Shown here: positions 12,800 to 34,993 of the stretch, one piece after another
Position numbering within the stretch: the first letter of the stretch is position 1
Layout of the letters: the number at the start of each line of letters is the position of its first letter
Assembly (NCBI GenBank): GCA_016185525.1
Contig: JACPNK010000005.1
Location: 28,473-92,472, forward strand
Reading direction: 5' to 3'
DNA length: 64,000 nt
From: Candidatus Yanofskybacteria bacterium
GTDB taxonomy: Bacteria; Patescibacteriota; Minisyncoccia; 2-02-FULL-40-12; IGHO2-12-FULL-4
Position numbers and translations under genes: made by a program
Notes under the pieces: generated by a model
What the model saw: the letters and a program-made list of their open reading frames with translations, nothing else
Told to the model about the DNA's origin: nothing
Databases searched by the model: none

Positions 12800-13891
12800 C
12801 TAATTCCTTAAAGGCATGATTAAATAAGTAACATCTTTTCTTTCTTCGGGTCTTATTATTAAAGGGTTGCCTTCTCCCGTAAATTCTAAAACAACATTAT
12901 CTGTAGGAATAACTTTTAGACCGTCCATTAAGTACCTATAATTTACCATCACCTCAAAAGGTTCATCCTTAACAATAGCGCTATTAATCCAGGAAGAAGC
13001 TTCTCCTTTGTCCGTATTTTTGGCGGCAATCCTCAAGCCTTCGCTTTCACCCTTTATTTTAATGTCGGAAATATGAGACGAAAAAATTCCAGCTAAACGT
13101 ACGCTTTTTTCTATTTCTTCTTTCTTTACAAGTACTCTTGATATCCGCCTCTCTGGTATAACTTTTTTATAGTCCGGATAAGAACCGTCTATAAGCCTTG
13201 AAACAATTTCTAAATCTTCGGAGACAAAGAAAATCTGATTGTCTGAAATTGAAATAGTAATATTTTCCAGTCCCGGAAGTATTCTGATCAACTCTTGCGC
13301 TGTTACTCTTGGAAGAATGATGCTTTGTTCTGCTTTGTTATTTTTTATATTTAAGACTTTTTCAGCCAACCTGAAACTGTCAGTCGCCGCCCCCTCAATT
13401 TTGTCAGCAGAAAAATTAATTAAAATACCTGACAACTCTGGCCTGCTTTCTGATAAAGAAACCGAGTCAATGACAGTCAGTAGTATTTCCAAAAATTCTT
13501 GTGACGGAACTTTAATAAAACCGTTTTCTTTTACTCTTGGTATGATTGGAAAATCTTTGGTCGGAAAACCGATAATTTTAGTTTTGTAGTTATCAGAGTT
13601 TATTGAAATAATATGTTCTTTGGAATTTATGGTAATTTTTTCGTCATGTATATTATCAATAAAATCAGAAAATATTTTTGCCGGCACTGCTATTTCACCA
13701 TCCTCTTCAATTTTTGCTCCAATCCAAGAATTAATCCCAATTTCAAGGTTAGTTGATGATATTTTCAATCTGCCGTTTTCTGTTTTAAGAACAATGTTTT
13801 GGAGTACCGGTAAAGCAAGATTTCTGGAAACGATCCTTTCTACCAAAGTCAGGCTTCTTTTAAGATTTTTTTGATTAACCGCGATAATCAT
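12800..13891 (-). CDS. dnaN: DNA polymerase III beta sliding clamp
   Basis: 363 aa with a three-domain clamp. The stop codon is TAG, which shows TAG functions as a stop in this genome. Confidence 0.9.
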   Translation of the reverse strand: MIIAVNQKNLKRSLTLVERIVSRNLALPVLQNIVLKTENGRLKISSTNLEIGINSWIGAKIEEDGEIAVPAKIFSDFIDNIHDEKITINSKEHIISINSDNYKTKIIGFPTKDFPIIPRVKENGFIKVPSQEFLEILLTVIDSVSLSESRPELSGILINFSADKIEGAATDSFRLAEKVLNIKNNKAEQSIILPRVTAQELIRILPGLENITISISDNQIFFVSEDLEIVSRLIDGSYPDYKKVIPERRISRVLVKKEEIEKSVRLAGIFSSHISDIKIKGESEGLRIAAKNTDKGEASSWINSAIVKDEPFEVMVNYRYLMDGLKVIPTDNVVLEFTGEGNPLIIRPEERKDVTYLIMPLRN

Positions 13892-14139: not shown

Positions 14140-15504
14140 TTACTTATCAAAAGATTGGTATATTCTTTCTTTAATTAAAACAATTTCCTGTTTTGTAATT
14201 TCATCCGTTTCTTCTTCAGTTTTCACTTTTTCATAAGCGTGAATTACCGTGGAATGGTCTCTGCCTCCCAATTTCTGGCCGATCTCCGGAAAAGATGATT
14301 TAGTCTCTTCTCTTAGTAAGTACATAGCAATCTGTCTGGGTCTTACCACCTCTTTCTTGCGGCTTCTTTTTATCAAATCGTTTGGCGAAATGTTATAGAA
14401 ATCAGAGACAGATTTTAAAATTAATTGAGGGGTGGTTTTTTTGTATGGCGTACTCAAGTAAGTCGCAAGCAGTTTTTTGACTTCTTTAACATCCAGATTT
14501 TTGTTATAAATCTGGCTTACGGCGATGATTCTGTTTAAAGCGCCTTCCAGTTCTCTTATATTTTTTTGTATGTTTGTTGCTATGTAACCCAAAACGTTTT
14601 CATCTAAAGCGATGTCTTTTTGTTTTGTTTTCAGTTTCAAAATAGCCAGTCTCGTTTCAAAATCCGGTGTGTTTATGTCGGCAATCATTCCTCCTTCAAA
14701 ACGAGATCTGAGCCTTTCTTCCAATGCAGGTATGGCTTTAGGCGGACGGTCTGATGACAAAATAATCTGTTTGTTTTTCCCATACAGCTCGTTGAAGGTT
14801 GCAAAAAAGATATCTTGGGTTTTTTCTTTTCCGGCTATAAACTGAATATCATCAACAATAAGCATGTCCAGTTTTGCATATTTGCTTTTAAGTTCTTCAA
14901 CATTTTTGTTTCTTACAGACTCAACAATTTCAGCCGTAATTCTTTCGGAAGGGATATAAAGGACTTTTTTGGTCGGATCGTCTTCTAAAATCTTATTGCC
15001 GGTAGCTTGCAGCAAATGAGTTTTTCCCAGACCGACTCCGCCATAAATGAATAAAGGATTATAGGCTTTGCCAAGATTTTTGGCGACAGCCGAACTTGCG
15101 GCATGAGCCAGCTCGTTGTGAGAGCCGACTATAAAAGAATCAAAAGAATATTTTTTGTTTAAGTTTGTTTGAGGATTAATGTCAGCAGGCTGTTTGTTTT
15201 CAAATACCCTCTCTGTGATGAATTGGGAAAAGTCCTTTTTGACGTTTGATTGAGGCAAACTGTTGCCGATAGTGTAACTAATCTCTCTAATTTCCGGAGA
15301 AAAAGTTTGTATAGAAGTCAGTATTTGTTTATGGAATTTGTTTTCTAACCATTCTTTGATAAATCCATTAGGAACTCCGACTATAACCGAAGTCCCTTCA
15401 TTGGCTAATATGGAAGTGTTTTTAAACCAGGTAGTAAAGTTGGCCTTGGAAAGAGAAAGCTCCATCTCTCCCAAAACAGCTTTCCACAATTCTTCTTTGG
15501 TCAT
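14140..15504 (-). CDS. dnaA: chromosomal replication initiator DnaA
   Basis: 454 aa; AAA+ Walker A GGVGLGKTHLLQA and a C-terminal DnaA-box binding domain (HSTVIHAYEKV). Confidence 0.95.
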   Translation of the reverse strand: MTKEELWKAVLGEMELSLSKANFTTWFKNTSILANEGTSVIVGVPNGFIKEWLENKFHKQILTSIQTFSPEIREISYTIGNSLPQSNVKKDFSQFITERVFENKQPADINPQTNLNKKYSFDSFIVGSHNELAHAASSAVAKNLGKAYNPLFIYGGVGLGKTHLLQATGNKILEDDPTKKVLYIPSERITAEIVESVRNKNVEELKSKYAKLDMLIVDDIQFIAGKEKTQDIFFATFNELYGKNKQIILSSDRPPKAIPALEERLRSRFEGGMIADINTPDFETRLAILKLKTKQKDIALDENVLGYIATNIQKNIRELEGALNRIIAVSQIYNKNLDVKEVKKLLATYLSTPYKKTTPQLILKSVSDFYNISPNDLIKRSRKKEVVRPRQIAMYLLREETKSSFPEIGQKLGGRDHSTVIHAYEKVKTEEETDEITKQEIVLIKERIYQSFDK

Positions 15505-16403: not shown

Positions 16404-17138
16404 ATGTCAGCCATTTTTAACGAGGCTTTATATCGGCCAATATTTAATTTTTTGGTTTTTATCTACAATCTGATTCCAGGATCCGATTTCGGTTTGGCAA
16501 TTATAGTTCTGACGTTATTGGTAAGGTTGATTTTTATGCCGCTGTCTGTCAAAGCGCTGCGTTCACAAAAGCTGATGGCCAGGCTTCAGCCGAAAATTAA
16601 AGAGTTGCAGATGAAACACAAAGATGACAAGGCCGCCCAAGCCCAAGCAGTCATGGCTCTTTACAAGGAAAATAAAGTTAATCCGGCTTCCGGTTGTTTG
16701 CCTCTCATAGTCCAGCTTCCCGTGTTGTTTGCTTTATATAAGGCTTTTGCCAACGGCTTTAAACCGGAGAGTTTGGGCCTGCTCTACGGTTTTATAAGTA
16801 ACCCTGATGCTATAAACAGCATCTCTTTTGGTTTTTTTGATTTGTCAAAAAACAGCCCTATTCTTGCCGTTATCTCCGGCGCTTTTCAGTTTTTGCATTC
16901 CAAACTTAGTTTCGCGAAGCAGGAATCTGATAAAAACTTAGACGCAGGAAGCTCTCTGAAAAGTAGTTTTGATATGGGAGCGATGAATAAACAAATGTTG
17001 TATTTTTTTCCGATAATGATTATAATTATTGGCTGGAAGTTGCCAGCCGGACTTGTTTTATATTGGGCGGTTACTACTTTGTTTTCAACGTTTGAGCAGT
17101 TATATATAAACAAAAAATTTCCCAATCTGCCCAGCTAA
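16404..17138 (+). CDS. yidC: membrane protein insertase YidC/Oxa1 (short form)
   Basis: 244 aa, five TM helices, 60 kDa inner-membrane-protein family motifs (PLSVKALRSQ...MQ...YKE). Sits in the rnpA-yidD-yidC-jag context. Confidence 0.85.
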   Translation: MSAIFNEALYRPIFNFLVFIYNLIPGSDFGLAIIVLTLLVRLIFMPLSVKALRSQKLMARLQPKIKELQMKHKDDKAAQAQAVMALYKENKVNPASGCLPLIVQLPVLFALYKAFANGFKPESLGLLYGFISNPDAINSISFGFFDLSKNSPILAVISGAFQFLHSKLSFAKQESDKNLDAGSSLKSSFDMGAMNKQMLYFFPIMIIIIGWKLPAGLVLYWAVTTLFSTFEQLYINKKFPNLPS

Positions 17139-17147
17139 GTTACTAAA

Positions 17148-17666
17148 ATGAACGAAAACTTAAACGAAAAAATAGATGAAAAGCCTGTAATTTTAGAAAA
17201 CGTTACCAAAGACGTTCTGGATAAACTTGGTTATCAGGCGGAAGTAAATATTTTTTCAAATGAAAAAGATCAAAACTTAAAAGTTGTGGCGATAAATTCA
17301 AGTGAGGACTTAAGCGCTTTGATAGGAAAAAACGGGCAGAACATAAAAGCGGTTGAGCATGTGATTAAGCTATTGTATTTTAAAAGGTCAAATTTTTTAA
17401 ACGATAATTCTGCATCCCTTAAGCCGTTTGCTTTTATGGTTGATATTAACGACTACAGAAAGCTAAGGGTTCAACAAGTGATAGAAAAGGCTTTAGGCGT
17501 GGCAAACAGAGTCAAGGTTACAAAGAAAGCTGAAGCTTTGGATCCCATGTCCTCCTATGAAAGACGCTTAATTCACGTTGAGCTGGCCTCTCACCCGGAC
17601 CTGGAGACAGAGAGTATCGGTGAGGAGCCGGAAAGAAGAGTAGTCATCCGTCCTCTGATAATATAA
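17148..17666 (+). CDS. Jag/KhpB RNA-binding protein (KH plus R3H domains)
   Basis: 172 aa; the C-terminal R3H motif SYERRLIHVELASHPDLETESIGEEPERRVVIRP is typical. Confidence 0.8.
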   Translation: MNENLNEKIDEKPVILENVTKDVLDKLGYQAEVNIFSNEKDQNLKVVAINSSEDLSALIGKNGQNIKAVEHVIKLLYFKRSNFLNDNSASLKPFAFMVDINDYRKLRVQQVIEKALGVANRVKVTKKAEALDPMSSYERRLIHVELASHPDLETESIGEEPERRVVIRPLII

Positions 17667-19432: not shown

Positions 19433-22400
19433 TTAACTTTTTTGCTGTTCTGCCCATTCTCTTTTAGCCTTTTCAATTTCCAGAATCTGGCGCGGGTCGG
19501 AAGTGATAATTTGATCTTCGGTATAAGAAGCGACAACTCTGATGCCGACGTGGTTAGAGCCGGCAAAAAACAGTCCGTGTCCGACGCCGGCCTCCAGCAA
19601 AAAGAATTTTTCAGCGTCTGTCAGGTTGAAAGTCTCTTTGACGCCTTCAATGGAGGCGGCGGATTGTTTCATTAAAATTTGGATTGAGGAGTTGGTGACG
19701 ATAGCCTTGCCATAAGAGGAGTTCAAAAAGTCCGGCACGTCTTGGGAAATTGTCGTCAATCCCAGAAAGTATTTTCTGGCTCTTTTGGCTACGTTGAACA
19801 GAAAAGCTCCGCCAATTTCGTATTTAAGCAGCCACCAGGCTTCGTCCACAACGAGAGTTCTTTTTTTAAGAACAGTGCGGACTTTGGTCCATACGTAATT
19901 TAAGACAAGATACATGGCGATGGGTCTCAACTCTTCTTCCATATCTCTGATGCTGAAAAGCACCAGCCTGTTGTCTAAGGAGACATTTGTCGGTTTGTTC
20001 AAAAATCCGGAGAAAGTTCCTTCCGTATATTTTTTTATGCGGATGGCCATAGATTCGGCTCCGGCAAGCCCTTCAAGGATATTTTGAAAATCAGAGAGCA
20101 ATGGCACTTCGCCTTGGCCGTTATTATTTTCTGTGGTTATATCTTTCAGCGCATAGGTTTGAATTAACGCCTCGTCAAGAAGAGAATCTTCTTCCGGCGT
20201 AAGTTCTCCCATCATTAACTTAAACAAACCGGTTAAGTCTAAAATGTGTGTCCGGAAAACATCTTTGAAATCTTCCCCTTCAGTCGGCGACGGCAGGTCA
20301 AACGGATTTATATGGTTATCCGAAGCAATGGAGATGTTTATTGAAGAGCCGCCAACCGTATCAGCCAAGTACCGGTATTCATTTTCGGGATCTATTATAA
20401 AAACCTCTGTGCCCAGCATTAAACTTCTCAATATTTCCAGTTTTACGGTATAAGAGTTATGAACAAACACCCCCCCGGTGCCAGCTAGAAAAACTTCATT
20501 GTCCACAGTCAAATCGTAAACATATTTTTCTTTTCGATTTTTAATTTTCTCTACTTTTTTGATGGGATCCCAGAATAAATTACTATTGGCCAGCATCTCC
20601 AGTTTTTCAAGCAATTGCTCCAGTCGTGGGACATTATTTATTCTTTCCCGGTATTTTTGTGAAATGTATTTGCTTGAATCCCAGAGCATTTTATATGAAG
20701 TGTTCCCGGACGGCCCGCTGATAAGAGCGCTTTGTAATGACGGATTAAAGTGATTCATAACTAACCCCATTTCTTGAAAACCAGAGCGAAGCAATTTTTT
20801 AATTTCTGCCAAAGAATAATCAAAACCGGCACCCATTGTTTTTAAGGCTTTTAATACATTAACTGTTCTGGGCGCTACTCCACCATTTTTCATTGTATGC
20901 CAGCTTTGTCCTAGAACCTGCCATAATTTGCAGTTTAAGTCCTTATTCTGTGCACCTTTCTCTATGATTGATTCTAAACTAGGAAGGTTAAGGTTAAAAC
21001 GGGAACTTTGATTTCTAAATTTATCTATAATTTTTCTAATTTCACTGATAACTACACTCAACTGTGCTGGTGATGGATCATAAATCTCTCTTTTTAGTGG
21101 AGATAGTTTTTGAAACCTTCTAGAATGAGCAGGTAATAGCCGGTCAATTTCTTTAAATATCTCACTAAGGCCAGGTATTATATCTACATTAGTATTTCTG
21201 TCTCGGCTAATTTGTTGAAGCAACAAGTTTCTTTTTCGTTTAGAAACGAAATTGATGTTGTCGGCGAATCTCTTCAAATTTTCCTGGCCGGAAATTGTCA
21301 GCTGCCAATAAAGTTTTTTTCTTATCCAACCGGAAGCCTTTTTCTTAATGGGTCTTATGCGGGCAACAATACCGAAGTAGTATAGCAAATAAGATAATTC
21401 AGAAATGAGCTGTTTAGATTTTGAACTGGCGCTGATTGAAGCACTTTCTACTCCGCCATCACCTTCAAAGTATGCACGCAAATAAGCGGCAATTACCGAT
21501 TTTTCTGCACCGAAAACAAAAGGCGCAATAGTTTTAGTGCCAGCTTTTTGCTTGCCCCCTATAGATTTAATGAGTTCAACAAAAGGCTTGTCGGCAGTGT
21601 TGATGCCACGATTGCCGAAGAAGTAAGGAATGCCTAATTGTCGGAAAGATTTAGCGCTATCATCTAATACTGTTGGGTCTAAGTTAGAAATCATCACCAC
21701 ATTTTCAGTAATTGTTCCTTCAGCAGCAATGTAACCGAGAATTTTCAGAAACGGCTCGTTAATAGGCCACTGCATTGGTAAATGACTGCGTTGATTTCTA
21801 GAAACAATCTTTAATTTGCTAAGAATAGGATCATTTAAAGAAATTCTAAATTTGGCCAGAATTTTGTACAAGTAATTTAGCGGAATAGGACGTCCGGCGC
21901 AGTATTTGTACAAGTAGCGATCTCTGTCATCTAGTTTTGTCTTTTTTAAAACACTTCTCCATGTTTGCAATAAAGGTCCGGCTCCAGCAACATAAATTTT
22001 ATTTGATTTTTTCAGCGCTTCCAGTAGATTCAAAAATTTTCGGGGCTGTTCGGATGGTTTGATGTGGCGAGGTAAAGGCAACCACTCACCTGCTTTAGTT
22101 TCAGAACCTTTTGATACTGCTATCTGTCCGTTTTTAAGTGTGACCAAATTATGGTCGCCGGTGGTAGTAATTGTTCGGCCGGAGCCAGTAGTAAATCGGT
22201 AGAAATAATCAGTGGCTACTTTTCTGGCCGCTACTGTTACCTTAGACCATGAACCTTTTAAATTCTTGTCAAAACTCCAAACTTCCAGATTGGGATCAAT
22301 AACCCCTTCTAACTCTTCGTCAATTTGCACAGCTCCATGTTTGGCAATTTCTTTTTCTATTAGTGGACCGATGGCAGACAGTTTTACTTGACCGTTGCGT

Positions 22401-23179
22401 CTAATTAAAACCGGCTCAGAGCCTTTTACCGACTTTCCGCCGCCGGATTTTCCGAAAACGACCGAGTTGTAATTTTCCAAAGAAAATCTGTCAAAAAGAA
22501 TCAAAGAGTTGTTGTGGGTGTTGATGCCGTACAAAAGGCCGCTATCTGAAGTCAGGTCGTAAGAAACAAATGGAAACACCGAAGAAATGGGTTGAGTATT
22601 CAAAGAACTGTGAGCATTCAAGAGATCGTTGTCTAAAGGCAGGGTTGAAAGGAAACCCTCTTTCATTCTGAAGGTTGCCGGTTTAAGGTAAATCAGTTGC
22701 GCTTCAAAAATGCCCCTGATCTTGGCCTCGGTTTCATCTAACTCTTTTTCATTTTGGCCGTAGATTGTGATATAAACTCCAAATTCAAAAAATCTGTCTG
22801 TGCCTTGCTGTATCGTGTCTCTCAAGTCCTCAATATCCGAAATGGCCGTGTCAAGAATGGGGTTGCGGACCTTGCCTTGATTGGCCTCTTCTATCGCCTG
22901 TGCCTGCAGACGGGCAAGTTTATCTCTTAGTTTTTTTAGGATACTGCCGGAGTCGGTTGGGTGAAAAAAGATTGAAACATCCAAAACACGATCCAGGTTT
23001 ATCACAGGCGAGAACCACTGGGTGTTCAGGTATCTCGGCAGAGTTGACAAAAATAAAGTCCGGGCAAACCTATCGCCTACCTGGATGTTGCTGCTGGAGA
23101 TATTAACGGCGCTTGGAGCCAGCTGGTCGTCCAAAAACTCTTCCGTTTTGGTTTCTATTTTTTTATTAAATATTGGCAT
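19433..23179 (-). CDS. VirB4/TrbE/CagE-family type IV secretion ATPase interrupted by an intein
   Basis: N-extein ends at the Walker A FGKSGGGK. C-extein resumes SYTVKLEIL... and carries Walker B LVVDEAWWLL. The spliced product would restore GKSGGGKS. Confidence 0.8.
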   Translation of the reverse strand: MPIFNKKIETKTEEFLDDQLAPSAVNISSSNIQVGDRFARTLFLSTLPRYLNTQWFSPVINLDRVLDVSIFFHPTDSGSILKKLRDKLARLQAQAIEEANQGKVRNPILDTAISDIEDLRDTIQQGTDRFFEFGVYITIYGQNEKELDETEAKIRGIFEAQLIYLKPATFRMKEGFLSTLPLDNDLLNAHSSLNTQPISSVFPFVSYDLTSDSGLLYGINTHNNSLILFDRFSLENYNSVVFGKSGGGKSVKGSEPVLIRRNGQVKLSAIGPLIEKEIAKHGAVQIDEELEGVIDPNLEVWSFDKNLKGSWSKVTVAARKVATDYFYRFTTGSGRTITTTGDHNLVTLKNGQIAVSKGSETKAGEWLPLPRHIKPSEQPRKFLNLLEALKKSNKIYVAGAGPLLQTWRSVLKKTKLDDRDRYLYKYCAGRPIPLNYLYKILAKFRISLNDPILSKLKIVSRNQRSHLPMQWPINEPFLKILGYIAAEGTITENVVMISNLDPTVLDDSAKSFRQLGIPYFFGNRGINTADKPFVELIKSIGGKQKAGTKTIAPFVFGAEKSVIAAYLRAYFEGDGGVESASISASSKSKQLISELSYLLYYFGIVARIRPIKKKASGWIRKKLYWQLTISGQENLKRFADNINFVSKRKRNLLLQQISRDRNTNVDIIPGLSEIFKEIDRLLPAHSRRFQKLSPLKREIYDPSPAQLSVVISEIRKIIDKFRNQSSRFNLNLPSLESIIEKGAQNKDLNCKLWQVLGQSWHTMKNGGVAPRTVNVLKALKTMGAGFDYSLAEIKKLLRSGFQEMGLVMNHFNPSLQSALISGPSGNTSYKMLWDSSKYISQKYRERINNVPRLEQLLEKLEMLANSNLFWDPIKKVEKIKNRKEKYVYDLTVDNEVFLAGTGGVFVHNSYTVKLEILRSLMLGTEVFIIDPENEYRYLADTVGGSSINISIASDNHINPFDLPSPTEGEDFKDVFRTHILDLTGLFKLMMGELTPEEDSLLDEALIQTYALKDITTENNNGQGEVPLLSDFQNILEGLAGAESMAIRIKKYTEGTFSGFLNKPTNVSLDNRLVLFSIRDMEEELRPIAMYLVLNYVWTKVRTVLKKRTLVVDEAWWLLKYEIGGAFLFNVAKRARKYFLGLTTISQDVPDFLNSSYGKAIVTNSSIQILMKQSAASIEGVKETFNLTDAEKFFLLEAGVGHGLFFAGSNHVGIRVVASYTEDQIITSDPRQILEIEKAKREWAEQQKS
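20456..22423 (-). mobile_element. intein (about 656 aa) with LAGLIDADG homing endonuclease inserted in the VirB4 P-loop
   Basis: Begins with Ser (SVKGSEPVLIRRNGQ... block A-like) and ends ...LAGTGGVFVHN followed by the +1 Ser. Internal LAGLIDADG-like motifs are ILGYIAAEGT and YLRAYFEGDGGV. Confidence 0.75.
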
Positions 23180-23789
23180 TGTAAAGTCTATAAAACATAC
23201 TAACCAGCTCTTCTCTTTCCAAAGTTACGGAGTTCAGGCCCATTCCACGCAGACCCTCTTTTATTATTTCAGCCCGCTGTTCTATCTGGCTTTTATACAA
23301 GTTGAAATCTTGCTCTTCAAGACTCTTTATTTTTTGAGCGGCTGAACCGAAGGCGCTTTTGATGTTCTCCAGAAAACTCTTTTTTGAAGCGGCTTCGGTT
23401 ATATATAATGGCACTACGACATAAAAATTTTTAGACATAATGTTGGCAAGTTCAGTCAGGCCTTTGATAAATCTTATATACTCAATCCCCTGAATTTTCA
23501 AAAGCTCGTTGTCCAGCTGGTCAACGAGGACTTGGGTTTTGGCCAAGTAGTTTTTAATATCAAGCTGGCGGGAGTGTACGGCAATTTGCAAAGGGAAATC
23601 AAGCGAGTTTAAAAAATTTTGAAACGCTTTGACGATTGCAATCTGTTCATCGTTTGATTTCAAATCAAAATTGACGGAGTCAACTTTCAAAATCAGGCGC
23701 ATTGAGCCGTTTTTAAGTATTACCACGCCGTCTTTAATATCGTGGATGTCAACAAACTGTTTTGTGTTTAGGTTTTTATTTTGGGGCAT
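23166..23789 (-). CDS. hypothetical soluble protein, translationally coupled to the VirB4-like gene
   Basis: 207 aa; the 3-prime end overlaps the virB4-like start by 14 nt. No recognisable motif. Confidence 0.4.
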   Translation of the reverse strand: MPQNKNLNTKQFVDIHDIKDGVVILKNGSMRLILKVDSVNFDLKSNDEQIAIVKAFQNFLNSLDFPLQIAVHSRQLDIKNYLAKTQVLVDQLDNELLKIQGIEYIRFIKGLTELANIMSKNFYVVVPLYITEAASKKSFLENIKSAFGSAAQKIKSLEEQDFNLYKSQIEQRAEIIKEGLRGMGLNSVTLEREELVSMFYRLYNANI

Positions 23790-24081
23790 GGTTTGTTTCT
23801 TCTTGGCCGGGCTTGTAGATGTATCTTTTGGGGTTAAAAGTAAAACTTATAGCATTGGCTAAGTAAACATACAGAGGAATTTCCGAAACTTTTATCAGCG
23901 CAAGACTCAAGGTGACTGCTATTACCGGTATTGCCAAAACTACAAACCAGCCCGGAGGAACAAGAAAAAATATCAGGAATAACAGCATTCCGCCGATGGT
24001 GATGAAAATAAACTGCTTAATAGTAAAAGGCCCGATTATCTTTTCTTCCGTTTCTATAAATTGTGGAACTTGAAATCTCAT
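23776..24081 (-). CDS. small 2-TM membrane protein (VirB3/PrgI-like position and topology)
   Basis: 101 aa with two hydrophobic helices, immediately upstream of the VirB4-like operon genes. Confidence 0.35.
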   Translation of the reverse strand: MRFQVPQFIETEEKIIGPFTIKQFIFITIGGMLLFLIFFLVPPGWFVVLAIPVIAVTLSLALIKVSEIPLYVYLANAISFTFNPKRYIYKPGQEETNHAPK

Positions 24082-26679: not shown

Positions 26680-27918
26680 TTATTGATCTATGGTGGGGAT
26701 AGCGCATTGCTGTTCGCATTCAACTCGTTTATTATTTTCACAAATCTGTTTTTCTGCGGGAGTTGAAAGCGGATTACTGCAACTGGCTGATGCGTTTATG
26801 GCGCAGAAAGAATAGCAGTCATTTTGCGCCCCGCCAGTGTATTGCCCAGTTTGACTAGCGCCTTTGTCTTCGGAACCGGGGCTGACTGACGTGAAACCGG
26901 TTTTGTCCAAAGCAAAATTCGCTAGCTTGTTAATAGCGGCGCTGACTATAGCCATAATTACTTCCGAAAGCTCATCTGAAGTGACCAGCCACTTGGAGTT
27001 GTTATCAAACCATTGTGCCGCGCTTTCACCCAATATTTTTGCCGGGGTTAAAGTTTTACCAAGGAAGTTGCATTGAGCGCCGGCTCCAACGCTAGTTTGA
27101 CCTTGGCATTGGTTCAAACAAGTTTTGTCAGCGTCGCTGACGCATAAATTTTTTCGATTTAAATCAGGAATAATGTTACAGGCTCTTAGCAACGGGTCGT
27201 AACAGTTGTTGTAGCAGACAGTGCTTCTGACATTGGGAGTTCCTCGGCACGAACCTTGCGCTCCGGTAAAACCGCCGCCTCCGACAATTTCGCTTTGTCT
27301 AGCATTTTCTTGGGAGCTTCTTTGTTTATTTAATTCTTCCAAACTTATTGCCAAAGCTCCGGCTAAATTATTTTGCGGTTCCACCAAACGTGACCATGTC
27401 TCCCAGCCGCCGCCTTTTTCAAAACTTTTTTTAAAGTCAGCCCTGACCTTTTCTGGAATAGTGCATTTAATTTTAGTTTGAAATGGTGTCAGAGTGTCTT
27501 GTTTTAGTTCGTCATTAAAATCCGTCTGACCGATATCGACGTACGGAACACTGCTTGTTTGAAAGGCCAGGGCCAACGGCCCTCGTAAGTCGTCGCACAA
27601 AATACCCTTTTGTATAGAATAGTTTAACTGGGTGCGGAATTGATTTTCTCCTATTCTTTGGGCGTCAGCTAGAAACTTTTTCCAATTTTGCACGAAACTG
27701 GGCGCTTGTTGTCCTTTTTCAAGACCCAGGTTGTTTATGGAATTAACAACTCCGTTGCTTAGGTTTGTGAGCAGTCTTCTTGCCAAGGCCCTTGCTATCA
27801 AGTCAAGGCCGAATTCTTTAGTGATGTAAGCGATAGCGGCTGCTCCTTGACTGGCATAAAAAGGCACGCTAAAACCAAGCGCAAATATTAAAACAAGGAT
27901 AGTTATTTTTTTCCTCAT
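26680..27918 (-). CDS. secreted cysteine-rich protein (hypothetical; candidate surface or effector protein)
   Basis: 412 aa; signal peptide plus about 30 Cys in CxxC-like spacing (CYNNCYDPLLRAC, CLNQCQG, CENNKRVECEQQC). Confidence 0.45.
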   Translation of the reverse strand: MRKKITILVLIFALGFSVPFYASQGAAAIAYITKEFGLDLIARALARRLLTNLSNGVVNSINNLGLEKGQQAPSFVQNWKKFLADAQRIGENQFRTQLNYSIQKGILCDDLRGPLALAFQTSSVPYVDIGQTDFNDELKQDTLTPFQTKIKCTIPEKVRADFKKSFEKGGGWETWSRLVEPQNNLAGALAISLEELNKQRSSQENARQSEIVGGGGFTGAQGSCRGTPNVRSTVCYNNCYDPLLRACNIIPDLNRKNLCVSDADKTCLNQCQGQTSVGAGAQCNFLGKTLTPAKILGESAAQWFDNNSKWLVTSDELSEVIMAIVSAAINKLANFALDKTGFTSVSPGSEDKGASQTGQYTGGAQNDCYSFCAINASASCSNPLSTPAEKQICENNKRVECEQQCAIPTIDQ

Positions 27919-28937: not shown

Positions 28938-29276
28938 TTTAGAAATTATAACATTTAACATTTTTTGGACTTCTTCTAGTAAAGATGATGATTGTTCAAA
29001 ATCAATTTTTGGATACAGGTCTTTTGATATGATTAGTTGAGTTTCTAGTTCGGCGGCAGAAGAATAAGATATTCTTAAGAATTGCAAGTATTCCTTTAAA
29101 TTTTTGCGTTGTTGACCTTCGGCTATGTTAGAAGGAATTGATACTGCCGCTCTTCTCATTTGAGAGGATAGACCATAAATCTCGTTGAAAGGAAATTTTG
29201 CAGTGTTTTTATATATTTCTTTGACTAGTTCTATTCCTTTTTGCCAAACTATCAGTTCTTTAAATGATTTTATCAT
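28920..29276 (-). CDS. four-helix-bundle protein (23S rRNA intervening-sequence protein family)
   Basis: 118 aa; KELIVWQKGIELVKEIYKNT...RRAAVSIPSNIAEGQQR...SAAELETQL is the diagnostic family pattern. Confidence 0.75.
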   Translation of the reverse strand: MIKSFKELIVWQKGIELVKEIYKNTAKFPFNEIYGLSSQMRRAAVSIPSNIAEGQQRKNLKEYLQFLRISYSSAAELETQLIISKDLYPKIDFEQSSSLLEEVQKMLNVIISKLEART

Positions 29277-30939
29277 GCCTAGAACCTAGAACCTGAAAGC
29301 TAGAAGCTATCAGTACACTTAAACTAGCCAGTAAAATTGGCCAATCTCCTAGTTTATTATACAATGTTTTCTTGCTATTTAATACAATGTCGCCTGTTAA
29401 TATCTGAAATCCCTGCACTTGGAACGGATAAGTGCTTTCAGCACGAGAGTGCAAATCCGTTCCAAGTGAGGGGTCAAAACCCGTTTCGGAAGCTTCTCTT
29501 GAGATTTTTCCCGAGCCCGAAACCACAAAAGATGGTCCATAATTTGCGGCATAGATTAGGTATTTGTTGTTTTCAGCGGCGCGCAAAGAAGCCATAGCTT
29601 TAACTTGTCTGATTAAGTCTTTGGAACCGTTAGCAAAAGCGAAACTGCCTTGCACAGCTATGAGTTGTCCGCCAGACAAGGAAATATTTCTGGCCAAAGA
29701 CGGCGAAGAAATATCGGAACAAACCAAAGCCCCTACCCCCACCTGAGGACTGTCCTCAGTAAGATTGGGAAAATTAATAGCGGAGGGTGGCTGATGACCG
29801 CTTTGTAGCTCTTCAAAATTTTTAAGCTCTTCGGAATCAATGCCTAAAACTTTATCTAACAGGCGGAAGAGATAAGGCGCGTATTCCCCTCCCGGAGTCA
29901 AGAGTTTTTTGTCATAATCTCCAACCACGCCGCTTTTGGAATCCAAGTATATGGTTTTAGATTTTTTCAGAAAATTTTCCTGGATATGCGAGTTGTCTAT
30001 GATGGCGGTTTTGGAAGAAAATAGATTGTTGAAAAAAAGGCCGACATTCAAAGTATTGCCGAATAAACTTATGTTAGTAAAAAAATTGCTGGCTTCGGGA
30101 AAAACTATCAGTTTGGTTTCGGGTTCTTCTCTACTTATTTTATTCATCAGTTCAAGCTGTTTTTTGAAAAAAGAAAGCTGTTCTTGGGGGCTGTAGTTTT
30201 TTTTGCTTGGGATATAACTTTGAATGACCGCTACTTTAATCTTTTCGGCATTATTGTTGGAAGGAACGAACCAGTCAAATGGAAAGTAAGAAAGAGAAGT
30301 TAAAACAGCGATAAAAATCCAAAGTTTTTTGTATTGTCTTTTTTCCAAAAAAAGAAAAATTAAAACGGCGGCGAGAGCGACAAAAAAAGTAACGCCGTAA
30401 ATGCCAAGCAGAGACGATAACTTAAGAATCAAAGTGTTAGCATGCAAGTTGTAAGCAAGATTGCCGGCTGTCCAATCGGGTGAAATTGTATTGCCCGGGC
30501 TGAACCAGAGAATTGAAATTATAAATGATCTTAAATACTCAAACCAAACAAATATTGAAGGAAAAACAATCAAAGATGTCCAGCTTGTTTTCTTCTCAAT
30601 TTTCTTGAAAAGCCAAAATGCCGTTGCCCAGAGAAATGACATTGCCAGAGCGGTCAAAAGCCAAGCGAAAGCTATCAAACCGGCGGCAAGGTAGTGATTT
30701 TCAAAACCGAGTCCTTCAAGAGGATAAGTGTCCCAAAACCATCTGAAGACGAATAAGAAATAAACCAAACCAAACCAAAAGCCGGTTGAAAAAGCTTTCT
30801 GCGGGCGGATTTCAAGAAAAACAAAGAGAAGTATTAAAGCAAAAAATACCAGCCAGCCTAAGCCGAAAAAAGGCAAAGAAAAAGCCAAAATTAAACCGCC
30901 TAAAACTGCAAAGATAAGATTTGGCTTAATTTTCTCCAT
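29260..30939 (-). CDS. lnt: apolipoprotein N-acyltransferase-like (8-TM domain plus carbon-nitrogen hydrolase domain)
   Basis: 559 aa; CN-hydrolase triad candidates are E in IVFPEAS, K in DKKLLTPGGEYAP and C in GALVCSDI. The hydrophobic N-terminal half is typical of Lnt. Confidence 0.65.
   Translation of the reverse strand: MEKIKPNLIFAVLGGLILAFSLPFFGLGWLVFFALILLFVFLEIRPQKAFSTGFWFGLVYFLFVFRWFWDTYPLEGLGFENHYLAAGLIAFAWLLTALAMSFLWATAFWLFKKIEKKTSWTSLIVFPSIFVWFEYLRSFIISILWFSPGNTISPDWTAGNLAYNLHANTLILKLSSLLGIYGVTFFVALAAVLIFLFLEKRQYKKLWIFIAVLTSLSYFPFDWFVPSNNNAEKIKVAVIQSYIPSKKNYSPQEQLSFFKKQLELMNKISREEPETKLIVFPEASNFFTNISLFGNTLNVGLFFNNLFSSKTAIIDNSHIQENFLKKSKTIYLDSKSGVVGDYDKKLLTPGGEYAPYLFRLLDKVLGIDSEELKNFEELQSGHQPPSAINFPNLTEDSPQVGVGALVCSDISSPSLARNISLSGGQLIAVQGSFAFANGSKDLIRQVKAMASLRAAENNKYLIYAANYGPSFVVSGSGKISREASETGFDPSLGTDLHSRAESTYPFQVQGFQILTGDIVLNSKKTLYNKLGDWPILLASLSVLIASSFQVLGSRHDKII
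29277..29312. repeat. CTAG-rich repeat (right flank), partner of 28905-28937
   Basis: cctagaacctagaacctgaaagctagaagcta; it overlaps the 3-prime end of the lnt-like ORF. Confidence 0.5.
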
Positions 30940-31694
30940 TCATTTAATGTCAGCGACTCCGGACGCCTTTTTTCGTCAATGCCGGCTTCTTGAAGCTTTT
31001 TTCCAAGGGCCGCCCTTGGAAGGCTTAGTCCGGCGGAGAGACTGTTTAATAATTGTTTTCTTTTGCCGTTGAAAGCCAAACGGGCTAATTTCATAATTTT
31101 TTCAACTTGTTCTTTTTCCGTCGGACCTTGGTCTTTAGGTGTCATTTTTATTAAAGCCGAATCAACTTTCGGTACTGGCCGGAAATTTCCTTTGGAAATA
31201 TATTTTAAAATTTTTGCGTCTGCGTAGAACCGAACCGACAAAGCCAGCAAACTCATTTTGGAAGGTTTAGCGACTATTCTTTGGGCTACTTCTTTCTGTA
31301 CCATGAACAAAATTAACTTTGGTGAAGGCCATTCGCTAAGCACTCTTCTTAAAAGTTGCGATGTCAAATAATAAGGGATATTCCCCACTACCTTGTATTT
31401 CCAAGGTTCGACCTTGATCAGATTAAGGTCGAACCTTAATATGTCTCCCTCAATCATTGTAACATTTTTTTGATTTTTAAACTTGGTTTGTAGAACCGGA
31501 ACTAAGTTTCGGTCTTTTTCAACGGCAATAATTTTTGCTCCGGTTTCCGCCAGTTTTTCGGTCAACAGACCTGTGCCGGCGCCGACTTCCAGCACAGTGT
31601 CGCTAGCTGAAATTTCAGCCATTTCAACTATGGATTTAAGTATACTGGCGTTTCTTAGAAAATTTTGACCCAATTTTCTTGACGGCCTTATCAT
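30900..31694 (-). CDS. rsmA: 16S rRNA (adenine1518/1519-N6)-dimethyltransferase
   Basis: 264 aa; KLGQNFL and SAM motif VLEVGAGTGLLT. Confidence 0.9.
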   Translation of the reverse strand: MIRPSRKLGQNFLRNASILKSIVEMAEISASDTVLEVGAGTGLLTEKLAETGAKIIAVEKDRNLVPVLQTKFKNQKNVTMIEGDILRFDLNLIKVEPWKYKVVGNIPYYLTSQLLRRVLSEWPSPKLILFMVQKEVAQRIVAKPSKMSLLALSVRFYADAKILKYISKGNFRPVPKVDSALIKMTPKDQGPTEKEQVEKIMKLARLAFNGKRKQLLNSLSAGLSLPRAALGKKLQEAGIDEKRRPESLTLNEWRKLSQILSLQF

Positions 31695-31876: not shown

Positions 31877-34800
31877 CTAGTCATAATCTATAAAATCTTC
31901 GTAATTAAAGTCCCGCCTAAACGGTTTTTTTGTATTTTCAGATATAAAATCTTCGGGTATTTCAGAGACGAATCTTGAAACCGGATTAAATTGAGACGAA
32001 CCATAAACCATGCGGTTTTGGCAGTGAGTCAAATAAAGTTTTTCTTTGGCTCTGGTGATTCCAACATAGCAAAGTCTTCTCTCTTCCTCCAACTCAACCG
32101 GATCAGTAATTGATCTGGGATGAGGAAACAGACCTTCTTCCATGCCTGCTAAAAAAACGGTTGGAAATTCCAGGCCTTTGGAAGCGTGCATGGTCATCAG
32201 GGTTGCGCTTTTTTCTTGGTTTTTAATTTGGTCGGTTTCTTGTATCAACGAAACCTCTTCCAGAAAAACCGGCAGAGATTCGCGCGACTTTAGGTTGTCG
32301 TATTTTGACGTAACTGTCAGAAGTTCTTTTACGTTCTCCCAGCGGGATTCGTGGTCAACAGTTTTTTCCTGAAGGTATTTTTGGTAGTCAATATTTTGGA
32401 GGAGTTTTTTTATGAGTTTTGAAAGGTAAGACTCGTCTAGTTTTTCTTCCAAAGCATTTATGGTTTTGCTCAATGAAGCCAAACCGGACAAAGCTTTCTT
32501 ATCTAATTCTTCTCTGTGATTTTTGAAAAGCTCAAAAACATTTCCGGCAGATTTTTGTTTTTGAATTTCCAGTATCCTTTCAAATGTTTTCTTGCCGATT
32601 CCTCTGCTTGGTACGTTGTGAATTCTTTCTAAACTAAAGTTGTCGCTCGGATTGAGCAGAAGCCTTAGATAAGCCAAGACGTCTTTAATTTCTTTTCTTT
32701 CATAAAATTTTAAGCCGCCAATAATTTTGTAGGGCAGACCGGCTTTCAGCATGGCTTCTTCAACAGCGCGGGACTGGGCGTGAGTGCGGTATAAAACACA
32801 AAAGTTGTTTAAGTCTTGTCCTTTTTTTAGTCCCTTTTTTATTTCGTCGGTTATAAATTTACCCTCTTCTCTTTCATTTCCTAATTCGGCAAGCAGTATT
32901 TTTTCGCCTTCCTGATTTTCAGTCCAGAGATTTTTGTGTCTTTGGAATTTATTGTTTGAAATAATATTTTGGGCGGCGGCTAAGATGTTCTGGGTTGAGC
33001 GGTAGTTTTGCTCCAAAAAAACAATTTTTGCCTCCGGATAGTCTCTTTCAAAACTTAAAATGTTGCGCAAATCTGCTTGTCGGAATCCGTAAATAGAGTT
33101 ATGGACAGCAAAATTGTTGGCAGTATAAGTGTGTGTTCTTTCAATATCTAGGTCGTAAACGGGGCCGTTATAATCAATTTTTTTAATATCAATGATTTTT
33201 TCGTTAACAAATTTTTTACCGTTAAAAACAGGAACAACCATGTGGGAATGCAAGTGAGATGCAGGCATAAAGTCAAAGTTAATGTCGGTGATTAAGGCGT
33301 GTTTTGTGACTTCAACGCCACACAATTCGGCTATTTGGCCGGCAAATTCTTCTGCCTTTTTATTATCGGCAAATACTTTCTCAATTCGCCAAGTATTAGC
33401 TTTGCCTTTTCTGACTTTCAGTCCGGAGTCTGTGAGTAATTTTCTAATTTTTTTGTTTTGGTTGTTTATACTGACTCTTGCTCTCCGTGACTTTGCTCTA
33501 GTTCCGCCATCGGAAGATGAAAAGTAGCACAGATTAACGGAAGTTCTCTTGGTTTGAAATTTTGTGGTTCCTTGCGGTCGGTGGTGGGGATAACTAAACG
33601 ACAAATCCAGATCAAGCATTAATTTTTTAGCGCGTTCAGCGCTTGGTATTTCTCGGAAAAGCTTTTCAATTTGTTTTTGGGTAATTAAACCGGAATCCGG
33701 GCCATTGCCTCTGTCAGCAAAAAAGACGGTAGTGGGTATGCCATAGTTAAAAGCATAATAAGACTCCCAAAAATGAGCTTCGGAACGGTTAGGCGAAAGT
33801 TTTAGAATCCACATTTTGTCAGCTCTTTCTTGATTAGCCCGCACATTTAGTCCAAGTCTGCTTTTGTTTTTTTTTATCTGTCTTATTCCCACAGTAACGC
33901 CTATTCTGTATCCTAATTTCTTAGAATACATCAAGTAAGTAAGAAAAAAATTTTTAGAGGGAAGAAGTTTACTAAACAAAATATGGTTGGGGGTGGTTTG
34001 TAAGACATTTCCATTTGCAGTGGTTATTTCCAGTAGCGGCCCCTTATATCGAAATCTTCTTGCATTTAATACTTTTGCCGGGCGAGTTAAACTTCTTCCG
34101 GCTGGCGACAAAATGTTCTCCCCTTTACTGACTTTTTCAATCTCTTTTAAGCCCTTTTCGGTTTTAATTTTTGTTTTTGGCGGAAAACATTGGTAATCAT
34201 CCCCAACAGCCATGATATTTTTGTGTTTTTGAGCCAGCATTTTCAGAAAAAGATACTGCGGTTTGTTGGTGTCCTGATATTCATCAACCAAAATGTATCT
34301 AAAGCGGTCTTGGTATTTTTCCAGTATGCTTTTTCCCTGTTTTAACATTTTTACGGTCCAAAAAAGCAGATCGTCAAAATCCATAGCGTTGCTGTTTTCC
34401 AAGTTTTTCTGGTAGAGAGGATAAATTTTAGCGACGATTTTTTCAAAAAATTCCTTAGCCGAGCCGCTGTATTCAGCCGGTCCGGCCAGGTTGGTTTTGG
34501 CTTCAGATATTCTGGCAAGCACGGCGCGGGGATTTGTTTTTTTTGTGTCAATTTCCAGTTCTTCCATTACTTTCTTGATAACGCCAAGCTGATCCTCGGT
34601 ATCGTAAATGACAAAGTTGGAAGTGTAAGGCGAGTTAAATTTTCCGATTTCGTTTCTTAACAACCTTGCCGATATGGAGTGAAACGTCCCCAGCATAGGA
34701 AAACCTAAATTTTGAATTTTGCCTGCCCCGCCGTTGGCGTATGACCTGGGGAATTTTGAATTTTGAATTAAGCTTATAACCCGCTCCCTCATCTCCCCCG

Positions 34801-34993
34801 CGGCTTTGTTTGTGAAAGTAACCGCTAAGATATTTTCTGGTCTTACTCCCTGCTGGATTAAGTGAGCAGTCCGATGGGTCAGCACCTTTGTTTTACCGCT
34901 GCCAGCGGCGGCAATAACCAAAACCGGACCCTCTGTGGCCCGTACCGCTTCAACTTGTTTTTCGTTTAAACCCTCAAAAAGATTTTTAGACAT
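31877..34993 (-). CDS. UvrD/PcrA-family ATP-dependent DNA helicase interrupted by an intein
   Basis: Walker A AAAGSGKTKVL and DEYQDTN. Motif III VGDDYQ is split from SIYGFRQAD by about 367 aa. C-terminal helicase motifs (QNYRST, VTRAKEKL) are intact. Confidence 0.85.
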   Translation of the reverse strand: MSKNLFEGLNEKQVEAVRATEGPVLVIAAAGSGKTKVLTHRTAHLIQQGVRPENILAVTFTNKAAGEMRERVISLIQNSKFPRSYANGGAGKIQNLGFPMLGTFHSISARLLRNEIGKFNSPYTSNFVIYDTEDQLGVIKKVMEELEIDTKKTNPRAVLARISEAKTNLAGPAEYSGSAKEFFEKIVAKIYPLYQKNLENSNAMDFDDLLFWTVKMLKQGKSILEKYQDRFRYILVDEYQDTNKPQYLFLKMLAQKHKNIMAVGDDYQCFPPKTKIKTEKGLKEIEKVSKGENILSPAGRSLTRPAKVLNARRFRYKGPLLEITTANGNVLQTTPNHILFSKLLPSKNFFLTYLMYSKKLGYRIGVTVGIRQIKKNKSRLGLNVRANQERADKMWILKLSPNRSEAHFWESYYAFNYGIPTTVFFADRGNGPDSGLITQKQIEKLFREIPSAERAKKLMLDLDLSFSYPHHRPQGTTKFQTKRTSVNLCYFSSSDGGTRAKSRRARVSINNQNKKIRKLLTDSGLKVRKGKANTWRIEKVFADNKKAEEFAGQIAELCGVEVTKHALITDINFDFMPASHLHSHMVVPVFNGKKFVNEKIIDIKKIDYNGPVYDLDIERTHTYTANNFAVHNSIYGFRQADLRNILSFERDYPEAKIVFLEQNYRSTQNILAAAQNIISNNKFQRHKNLWTENQEGEKILLAELGNEREEGKFITDEIKKGLKKGQDLNNFCVLYRTHAQSRAVEEAMLKAGLPYKIIGGLKFYERKEIKDVLAYLRLLLNPSDNFSLERIHNVPSRGIGKKTFERILEIQKQKSAGNVFELFKNHREELDKKALSGLASLSKTINALEEKLDESYLSKLIKKLLQNIDYQKYLQEKTVDHESRWENVKELLTVTSKYDNLKSRESLPVFLEEVSLIQETDQIKNQEKSATLMTMHASKGLEFPTVFLAGMEEGLFPHPRSITDPVELEEERRLCYVGITRAKEKLYLTHCQNRMVYGSSQFNPVSRFVSEIPEDFISENTKKPFRRDFNYEDFIDYD
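33098..34198 (-). mobile_element. intein (about 367 aa) in helicase motif III
   Basis: Begins CFPPKTKIKTEKGLKEI... (Cys1) and ends ...NNFAVHN followed by the +1 Ser of SIYGFR. No clear LAGLIDADG motif was seen, so the endonuclease domain may be degenerate or absent. Confidence 0.7.

Follow-up and report, generated by a model that had tools for sequence, protein, structure and literature searches.

The 64,000-nucleotide (nt) stretch of a Candidatus Yanofskybacteria genome analysed here, hereafter the window (contig JACPNK010000005.1 of assembly GCA_016185525.1), carries on its minus strand a gene for a VirB4-like type IV secretion ATPase in which the Walker A motif, or P-loop, is split by a long in-frame insert. 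The insert has the makings of a LAGLIDADG intein, and its identity, distribution and mobility are the subject of what follows. The gene and its parts, with the evidence for each, are these:

Positions 19433..23179, minus strand: VirB4-like type IV secretion ATPase precursor, one uninterrupted open reading frame (ORF) of 1248 amino acids (aa); NCBIfam NF045971.
Positions 22433..23179, minus strand: N-extein, aa 1-249, ending FGKSGGGK, the first 7 residues of Walker A; gap-free alignment to intein-less orthologues.
Positions 20456..22432, minus strand: intein, 659 aa (precursor aa 250-908), 1977 nt; Pfam, NCBIfam, PDB, AlphaFold/Foldseek and the empty site on contig L001 of an intein-less relative.
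Positions 19433..20455, minus strand: C-extein (aa 909-1248, then the stop codon), which holds the remainder of the TraG/VirB4 P-loop domain; Pfam, NCBIfam and orthologue alignment.

The N-extein tail reads ...VVFGKSGGGK, with FGKSGGGK at precursor aa 242-249; the insert begins SVKGSEPVLIRRNGQ at aa 250 and ends ...GTGGVFVHN at aa 908 (GVFVHN being aa 903-908), and SYTVKLEIL opens the C-extein at aa 909, its Ser+1 directly following the HN. Both junctions are in frame and fall between the Lys and the Ser of Walker A (GKSGGGK|S), and taking the insert out of the sequence restores the motif as GKSGGGKS. An initial annotation of this DNA, made from the letters and their translations, had proposed an intein of about 656 aa, ending at 22423, set precisely inside the P-loop of a VirB4-like ATPase, and had foreseen that splicing would regenerate GKSGGGKS. 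The insert, its exact placement and its boundary residues (FGKSGGGK, Ser1, GVFVHN, and Ser plus YTVKLEIL, all read on the minus strand) stand, and joining the exteins does give an intact Walker A at the sequence level; the dimensions do not, since the intein is 659 aa long and ends at 22432, the earlier figure being 9 nt short, apparently by a transposition of digits. The G+C content of the intein is 38.5%, that of the exteins 43.5-43.9% and that of the whole window 40.6%.

The host protein is recognised better with the insert removed than with it in place. Against NF045971 (VirB4-like conjugal transfer ATPase, CD1110 family; curated cut-off 325 bits), the precursor scores 333.3 bits in two stretches, and the extein-only sequence, which corresponds to a spliced product of 589 aa, scores 356.6 bits in a single stretch (aa 16-554). 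By these matches the host gene is classed as a VirB4/TraC-type type IV secretion ATPase of the CD1110 family, belonging to an MPF-FATA-like Patescibacteria clade. From the split Walker A motif we infer that ATPase activity would depend on splicing. The 1248-aa ORF is thus best annotated as a 589-aa VirB4-like ATPase plus an intein, and surveys of Patescibacteria type IV secretion systems that use VirB4 length, alignments or trees need the intein removed.

Intein-less orthologues define the empty site directly. The database search with the spliced sequence returned at least 8000 relatives, of which the best 120 were examined: all are 570-644 aa long, are 68-92% identical to the exteins and have no intein domain. 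Ten of them align gap-free across ...GxxGxGK|SYxVKLE..., and the comparison that the initial annotation had proposed, the joined exteins against VirB4 homologues, runs gap-free across GGGK|SYTVK and confirms the insertion point. The closest extein relative listed, P0121 (92% identical), is intein-less and is encoded on contig L001 in the same gene order as in the window (UvrD, KsgA, Lnt and, further along, PrgI, the protein with the TraC-like N-domain, and VirB4). The extein DNA of the two loci aligns end to end, and the window gene is the longer by exactly 1977 nt; the intein-less site of L001 reads GGGGGGGGTAAA|AGCTACGTCGTT, its flank also being given as GGGGGGGGTAAA|AGCTACGTCGTTAAG. A scan of the contigs of species-representative genomes gave 79 intein-less loci and 1 intein-bearing locus, figures that are biased and no estimate of frequency, as they cover the best 80 loci only and the ranking favours uninterrupted matches.

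What fills the site in the window reads as an intein both by sequence and by fold, with matches far stronger than chance would give. Searched alone, the insert matches Pfam Intein_splicing (E 1.7e-16, insert aa 36-659) and, in two stretches, LAGLIDADG_3 (E 3e-21), and it exceeds the curated cut-offs of both TIGR01445 (intein N-terminal region, 7e-10, intein aa 2-98) and TIGR01443 (intein C-terminal region, 6e-5, intein aa 637-659), besides many partial NCBIfam matches to intein-containing archaeal proteins. The block A-like start SVKGSEPVLIRRNGQ and the two LAGLIDADG-like motifs (ILGYIAAEGT and YLRAYFEGDGGV) named in the initial annotation are all present in the sequence. A sequence search of the PDB places PI-PkoII first (E 1.3e-19), followed by the TFIIB mini-inteins, and both ends of the insert align with both intein ends. 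The AlphaFold model of the insert, built from 69 family members, has a mean predicted local distance difference test (pLDDT) of 91.7 and combines a Hint fold with a LAGLIDADG fold, the order of secondary-structure elements over aa 226-392 fitting the pseudo-dimeric alpha-beta-beta-alpha-beta-beta-alpha arrangement. Foldseek again puts PI-PkoII at the top (E 4.8e-25), with TliVMA, PhoVMA, PI-PfuI, PI-SceI (the nuclease domains of the last two included) and many mini-inteins among the matches, together with the hedgehog Hint domain 1at0 and the free-standing LAGLIDADG enzymes I-DmoI and I-Tsp061I (template-modelling, or TM, scores of 0.65-0.67 on target).

The residues expected of a splicing intein are in place throughout the family. 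Over the window protein and 120 full-length homologues, intein residue 1 is Ser in 117 of 121 (the window protein among them) and Thr in the other 4; the terminal HN and the Ser+1 are found in 120/120 homologues each. In the 69-sequence alignment, T91 and H94 of block B (T91-G-D-H94), D93, D640 of block F, H658 and N659 are invariant, as are G233, Y321 and G324, and the acidic residues of the two LAGLIDADG motifs, E238 and D325, each persist in at least 90% of the sequences. Both nucleophiles are Ser, as in the closest archaeal relatives. By its full set of splicing residues and its modelled fold, the insert is classed as a class-1 intein with a two-motif LAGLIDADG nuclease. The initial annotation had named two findings that would refute it, a non-Hint fold and homologues with a comparable insert lacking intein boundaries, and neither applies: AlphaFold and Foldseek give Hint plus LAGLIDADG, and the insert carriers always have Ser or Thr at position 1, HN and Ser+1. 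A host-specific insertion domain is rejected in view of the Hint fold, the intein boundary residues and the insert-free orthologues.

The Thr1 homologues (P0021, P0034, P0083 and one more) retain HN and Ser+1. Threonine is an unusual first residue, and nucleophile, for an intein, and these four copies speak for supposing that the element has lost splicing, whether as a decayed intein or as an insertion domain peculiar to the lineage, which would leave either a dead gene or an ATPase whose P-loop permanently holds 659 extra aa; its unusual length, with two accessory domains, speaks for this as well. We consider this very unlikely. All the class-1 residues are present and near-invariant in the family, the reading frame is intact over 1248 codons, the exteins are under a strong purifying selection that is unexpected in a dead gene (dN/dS, the ratio of nonsynonymous to synonymous divergence, is 0.027 for the N-extein), and, judging from the role of Walker A, a 659-aa insert between its Lys and Ser would be incompatible with a working P-loop. 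A pseudogene is rejected in view of the intact ORF and the purifying selection on the exteins.

From the AlphaFold model and from natural deletion variants, the intein divides into five segments, listed here together with the two nuclease motifs:

Positions 22028..22432, minus strand: N-terminal Hint part, intein aa 1-135, with Ser1 (block A) and T91-x-x-H94 (block B); TIGR01445, beta-rich in the model.
Positions 21788..22027, minus strand: accessory domain 1, intein aa 136-215, a small and mostly helical segment with a basic net charge of +13; model, charge and natural deletions.
Positions 21191..21787, minus strand: LAGLIDADG homing endonuclease core, intein aa 216-414; LAGLIDADG_3, Foldseek matches to I-DmoI and I-Tsp061I.
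Positions 21713..21742, minus strand: LAGLIDADG motif 1, ILGYIAAEGT, precursor aa 480-489, with E238; alignment.
Positions 21449..21484, minus strand: LAGLIDADG motif 2, YLRAYFEGDGGV (contains YFEGDGG), precursor aa 566-577, with D325; alignment.
Positions 20582..21190, minus strand: accessory domain 2, intein aa 415-617, about 200 aa, all-helical, net +10; AlphaFold and charge.
Positions 20456..20581, minus strand: C-terminal Hint part, intein aa 618-659, with block F (YVYDLTVDNEVFLAG, D640) and block G (GVFVHN, H658-N659); TIGR01443.

Both accessory domains are specific to this intein family. A Pfam search gave nothing significant for either (best, Linker_histone at E 0.085), and accessory domain 2, which is conserved and when modelled alone reaches a pLDDT of 93.7, has no significant Foldseek match (best E 0.32 in PDB and 0.30 in BFVD). 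As a database query on its own (203 aa) it returned no matches, an uninformative outcome owing to a word-index effect, given that 120 proteins in the set contain the domain. Intein aa ~150-210 are missing in P0011, P0012, P0083, P0104, P0245 and P0252, and aa ~482-596 in P0086 and P0255, with P0252 lacking parts of both accessory domains; since all these variants retain the Hint and LAGLIDADG parts, the accessory domains look modular and dispensable for the core fold. Among the homologues compared, accessory domain 2 is seen only in inteins hosted by VirB4 or DUF87 proteins. The accessory domains of PI-SceI and PI-PfuI are the basis of an analogy with DNA contact, and, together with the positive charge, this makes additional contacts between nuclease and DNA the most economical guess for the role of accessory domain 2. 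A more ambitious thought, which we regard as doubtful, is that this domain and the basic domain 1 form a new kind of intein module, either a DNA-recognition domain that extends the target of the endonuclease or a sensor that would make splicing of the ATPase conditional. Engineers of inteins and meganucleases may find the family of interest, as it supplies a large, all-serine, cysteine-free intein and two accessory domains that are so far unexplored.

The window intein is one member of a large family. The whole-precursor search brought up at least 120 clusters, formed at 90% identity, whose proteins of 1140-1320 aa share the same architecture and junctions; they come from Yanofsky-, Nealson-, Taylor- and Harrisonbacteria, Paceibacterales and unclassified Patescibacteria; their sources are NCBI, JGI, ENA and Logan, and several members had already been labelled "intein/homing endonuclease" or "LAGLIDADG family homing endonuclease" there. 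On these records the VirB4 intein allele is common but patchy in Patescibacteria, and we found no description of such a family in the literature on inteins in Patescibacteria, the candidate phyla radiation (CPR) or Parcubacteria. Mean identity to the window over these clusters is 50% for the intein and 55% for the host protein, and among full-length intein carriers even the nearest relatives reach only about 66-74% extein identity, the exception being a partial Yanofskybacteria protein, P0023, at 94%. It is hard to credit that an error of assembly, a chimera joining the intein of another gene into virB4, produced the window sequence: the assembly of the nearest relative does break inside the intein (at the end of contig L002 and the start of contig L060), but the same intein sits at the same codon in the at least 120 independently assembled protein clusters, some of them on contigs of 600-700 kb, and both junctions in the window are in frame with the expected residues.

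Beyond this family the resemblance shrinks to part of the intein. An exhaustive search covered 1.84 billion representatives and yielded 3342 proteins with a match to the intein. Only about the top 16 match it from end to end, and the hosts of those that were checked are VirB4-like or DUF87 ATPases in which the intein occupies the same GK|S site. The next relatives reside in T2SSE/PilB-like, UvrB and HerA/DUF87 ATPases and match intein aa 1 to ~440 only. Three proteins, P0247, P0249 and P0278, carry related inteins at the same GK|S and have C-exteins unlike VirB4 (SYLIKTFLLRASLV, SMTLKFFIDQ and SNLTKCMLYK); two of the three hosts match DUF87/HerA, P0249, which is N-terminally truncated, has no host-domain match, and accessory domain 2 is also present in P0247. 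The occurrence of GK|S inteins in P-loop hosts other than VirB4 suggests jumps between paralogous ATPases.

The signal of recent movement comes from the nearest intein-bearing genome, assembly GCA_016181105.1, the source of P0023. Its copy lies on two contigs, L002 with the N-extein and the first 440 intein codons, and L060 with the last 49 intein codons and the C-extein. By the Nei-Gojobori method, synonymous divergence (dS) between the window and this genome is about 2.1, a saturated value, over the 249 codons of the N-extein (92% aa identity), 0.15 over 439 codons of the intein (dN/dS 0.17; 0.12 for the nuclease part), 0.0 over the last 34 codons of the intein, and about 1.0 over the 340 codons of the C-extein (2.07 in the 110 codons at the junction and 0.78 beyond). 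Sliding DNA identity rises on entering the intein at the N junction from about 0.8 to 0.92-0.99 (window against L002) and falls at the C junction from 0.98-1.0 within the intein to 0.77 (window against L060). Moreover, the exteins of GCA_016181105.1 share 88% nucleotide identity with the intein-less L001 but 83% with the window. Since dS is far lower in the intein than in the exteins, the common ancestor of the intein in these two genomes is much more recent than that of the host gene, which points to recent horizontal homing or gene conversion of the intein, and the purifying selection on the nuclease fits this.

Some further observations concern the locus and its relatives. Compared with L001, L002 and L060, the extein DNA beside the junctions (~20120..20455 and 22433..22490) diverges in each case more strongly than the remainder of the gene, identity in the 90-nt span at the junction being 0.72-0.76 against means of 0.82-0.88; in this small sample, the pattern could stem from selection on the target of the nuclease or from tracts co-converted with different donors. 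Some pairs of homologues combine 80-85% extein identity with only 41-44% intein identity, which is consistent with faster evolution of the intein or with its replacement by divergent intein lineages. Two short plus-strand ORFs, 20244..20453 and 20559..20753 (64-69 aa), are antisense to the coding region under purifying selection, and nothing supports either.

A different account of the same facts is that the intein has been domesticated as a regulatory element and has not spread mainly by selfish homing. The intein is nearly as conserved as its host by mean identity, its dN/dS is well below 1, and it lies in a catalytic motif, the gene itself having come out as essential for the epibiotic growth of Saccharimonadia in a cited transposon sequencing screen (PMC12102498); P-loop inteins have, in addition, been viewed as perhaps selectively retained (Novikova et al., PMC4760082). 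We judge this account unlikely. The host evidently does not need the intein, given close relatives that lack it: the best 120 of the at least 8000 extein relatives, one of them 92% identical and in the same gene order. The catalytic residues of the nuclease are conserved and under purifying selection, which a pure splicing switch would not require, and an intein much younger than its flanks fits homing. Nor do the well-known conditional splicing mechanisms, which are redox or Cys-based, apply where both nucleophiles are Ser.

The best account, to which we assign a probability of roughly 88%, is that a splicing-competent and recently mobile class-1 LAGLIDADG intein occupies the Walker A motif of the chromosomal VirB4-like ATPase of a Parcubacteria/Paceibacteria bacterium, with splicing and DNA cleavage as predicted activities. 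Translation would give a 1248-aa precursor with a split P-loop; Ser1, helped by the Thr and His of block B, would undergo an N-O acyl shift, Ser+1 would carry out the trans-esterification, and Asn659, helped by His658, would cyclise, releasing a 589-aa ATPase with GKSGGGKS restored and a free 659-aa endonuclease. The endonuclease would then cut intein-less virB4 alleles at the conserved site, and repair would copy the intein in. A number of considerations temper this account. The dS contrast is that of one genome pair, the assembly of the relative, which was recovered from a metagenome, breaks within the intein, and with extein dS saturated at about 2 the ratio is approximate. Across the 120 homologues, intein identity exceeds extein identity by at most +0.06, so that transfers between distant hosts are not visible among them, and the two identities are moderately correlated (Pearson 0.60), an indication that much of the inheritance is vertical. 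The four Thr1 copies may splice poorly or not at all, and for the whole family both splicing and cleavage are predictions from sequence and model. The data nevertheless point to DNA exchange of the homing type among lineages of Patescibacteria, and the gene concerned is one considered central to their dependence on hosts.

The surroundings of the gene are those of a type IV secretion locus near the replication origin. The neighbouring features are as follows.

Positions 23166..23789, minus strand: 207-aa ORF; its L001 orthologue has a PF26593 TraC-like domain (Pfam on the orthologue).
Positions 23776..24081, minus strand: PrgI/VirB3-like protein, 101 aa; Pfam PrgI E 1.2e-11, L001 orthologue PF12666.
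Positions 26680..27918, minus strand: 412-aa Cys-rich protein with an N-terminal hydrophobic segment and no Pfam match.
Positions 12800..13891: DnaN.
Positions 14140..15504: DnaA.
Positions 16404..17666: YidC- and Jag-like ORFs.
Positions 29260..30939: Lnt.
Positions 30900..31694: KsgA.

The order of the TraC-like ORF and PrgI is the same in intein-less loci. The N-terminal TraC-like domain of VirB4 is a separate ORF, the 207-aa one, overlapping the start of the ATPase ORF by 14 nt; as the same split is found in L001 and L002, it is a family trait and not a frameshift. Beyond these two ORFs, the region upstream of virB4 also encodes a 166-aa protein, a 691-aa polytopic membrane protein, in which the match to TrbC/VirB2 is weak (E 0.0013) and below the cut-off, and the 412-aa Cys-rich protein. 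The window is part of the chromosome and lies near the replication origin. A relaxase-less, origin-proximal type IV secretion system near dnaA/dnaN/ksgA has been described for Paceibacteria, and the arrangement in the window matches it; that 2025 survey of Patescibacteria type IV secretion makes no mention of inteins (PMC12102498).

The window holds a second intein. It is 364 aa long (aa 269-632; 33098..34189, minus strand), lies within the 1038-aa ORF of a UvrD/PcrA-like helicase (31877..34993, minus strand), and is inserted inside helicase motif III (VGDDYQ|CFPPKT...NNFAVHN|SIYGFRQ) with Cys1, HN and Ser+1. It matches Pfam Intein_splicing (E 6e-13) and Hint; its middle part gives no LAGLIDADG or other nuclease match, and phmmer with the VirB4 intein as query does not detect it.

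Among inteins with structures in the PDB, the best match is PI-PkoII (PI-TkoII), the second intein of the Thermococcus kodakarensis DNA polymerase (PDB 2cw7/2cw8), which ranks first both by sequence and by fold (TM 0.70 on target). In both, a two-motif LAGLIDADG nuclease splits the Hint domain, one further domain separates the nuclease from the N-terminal Hint part, and block F/G is similar (YVYDL..ENFL.G....HN). They differ in host, an archaeal family-B DNA polymerase for PI-PkoII and a bacterial P-loop ATPase for the window intein, and in size (537 against 659 aa, at 19% identity), PI-PkoII having no counterpart of the 200-aa helical domain; the sequence alignment skips window intein aa 358-593. 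The closest solved Hint domains by sequence are the Methanocaldococcus TFIIB mini-inteins (PDB 5o9i and 5o9j; E 1.3e-17), which align with residues 3-133 and 604-659; they have no endonuclease, and their host is an archaeal transcription factor.

With regard to host and site, the initial annotation had called P-loops classic intein homing sites and a VirB4 host unusual. The former agrees with the literature, in which the Walker A inteins of ATPases (DnaB site b, MCM site a, RFC small subunit site a, V-ATPase subunit A) are well established (PMC4760082); these follow the same logic of P-loop insertion in different host families. The latter needs qualifying: a VirB4 host is uncommon but not unprecedented, as the survey of Novikova et al. 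2016 (PMC4760082) records 5 VirB4 (COG3451) inteins in Firmicutes and Proteobacteria and, for archaea, 21 in VirB11, and the present allele is already common in Patescibacteria assemblies. The listed VirB4 inteins, entered under mobile-element and secretion functions, share the host protein family with ours, and the comparison covers that family only. The nearest relatives outside VirB4 are in P-loop ATPases too, P0247 and P0278 at the equivalent GK|S, and those of the T2SSE/PilB-like, UvrB and HerA/DUF87 proteins, which match only the first ~440 aa, do so without accessory domain 2. Neither the VirB4 host nor the P-loop site is new in kind, and the window adds a clear example to established intein biology without altering it. 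What is new is a large Patescibacteria branch that we did not find described, a direct signal of recent transfer, and a helical domain specific to the family.

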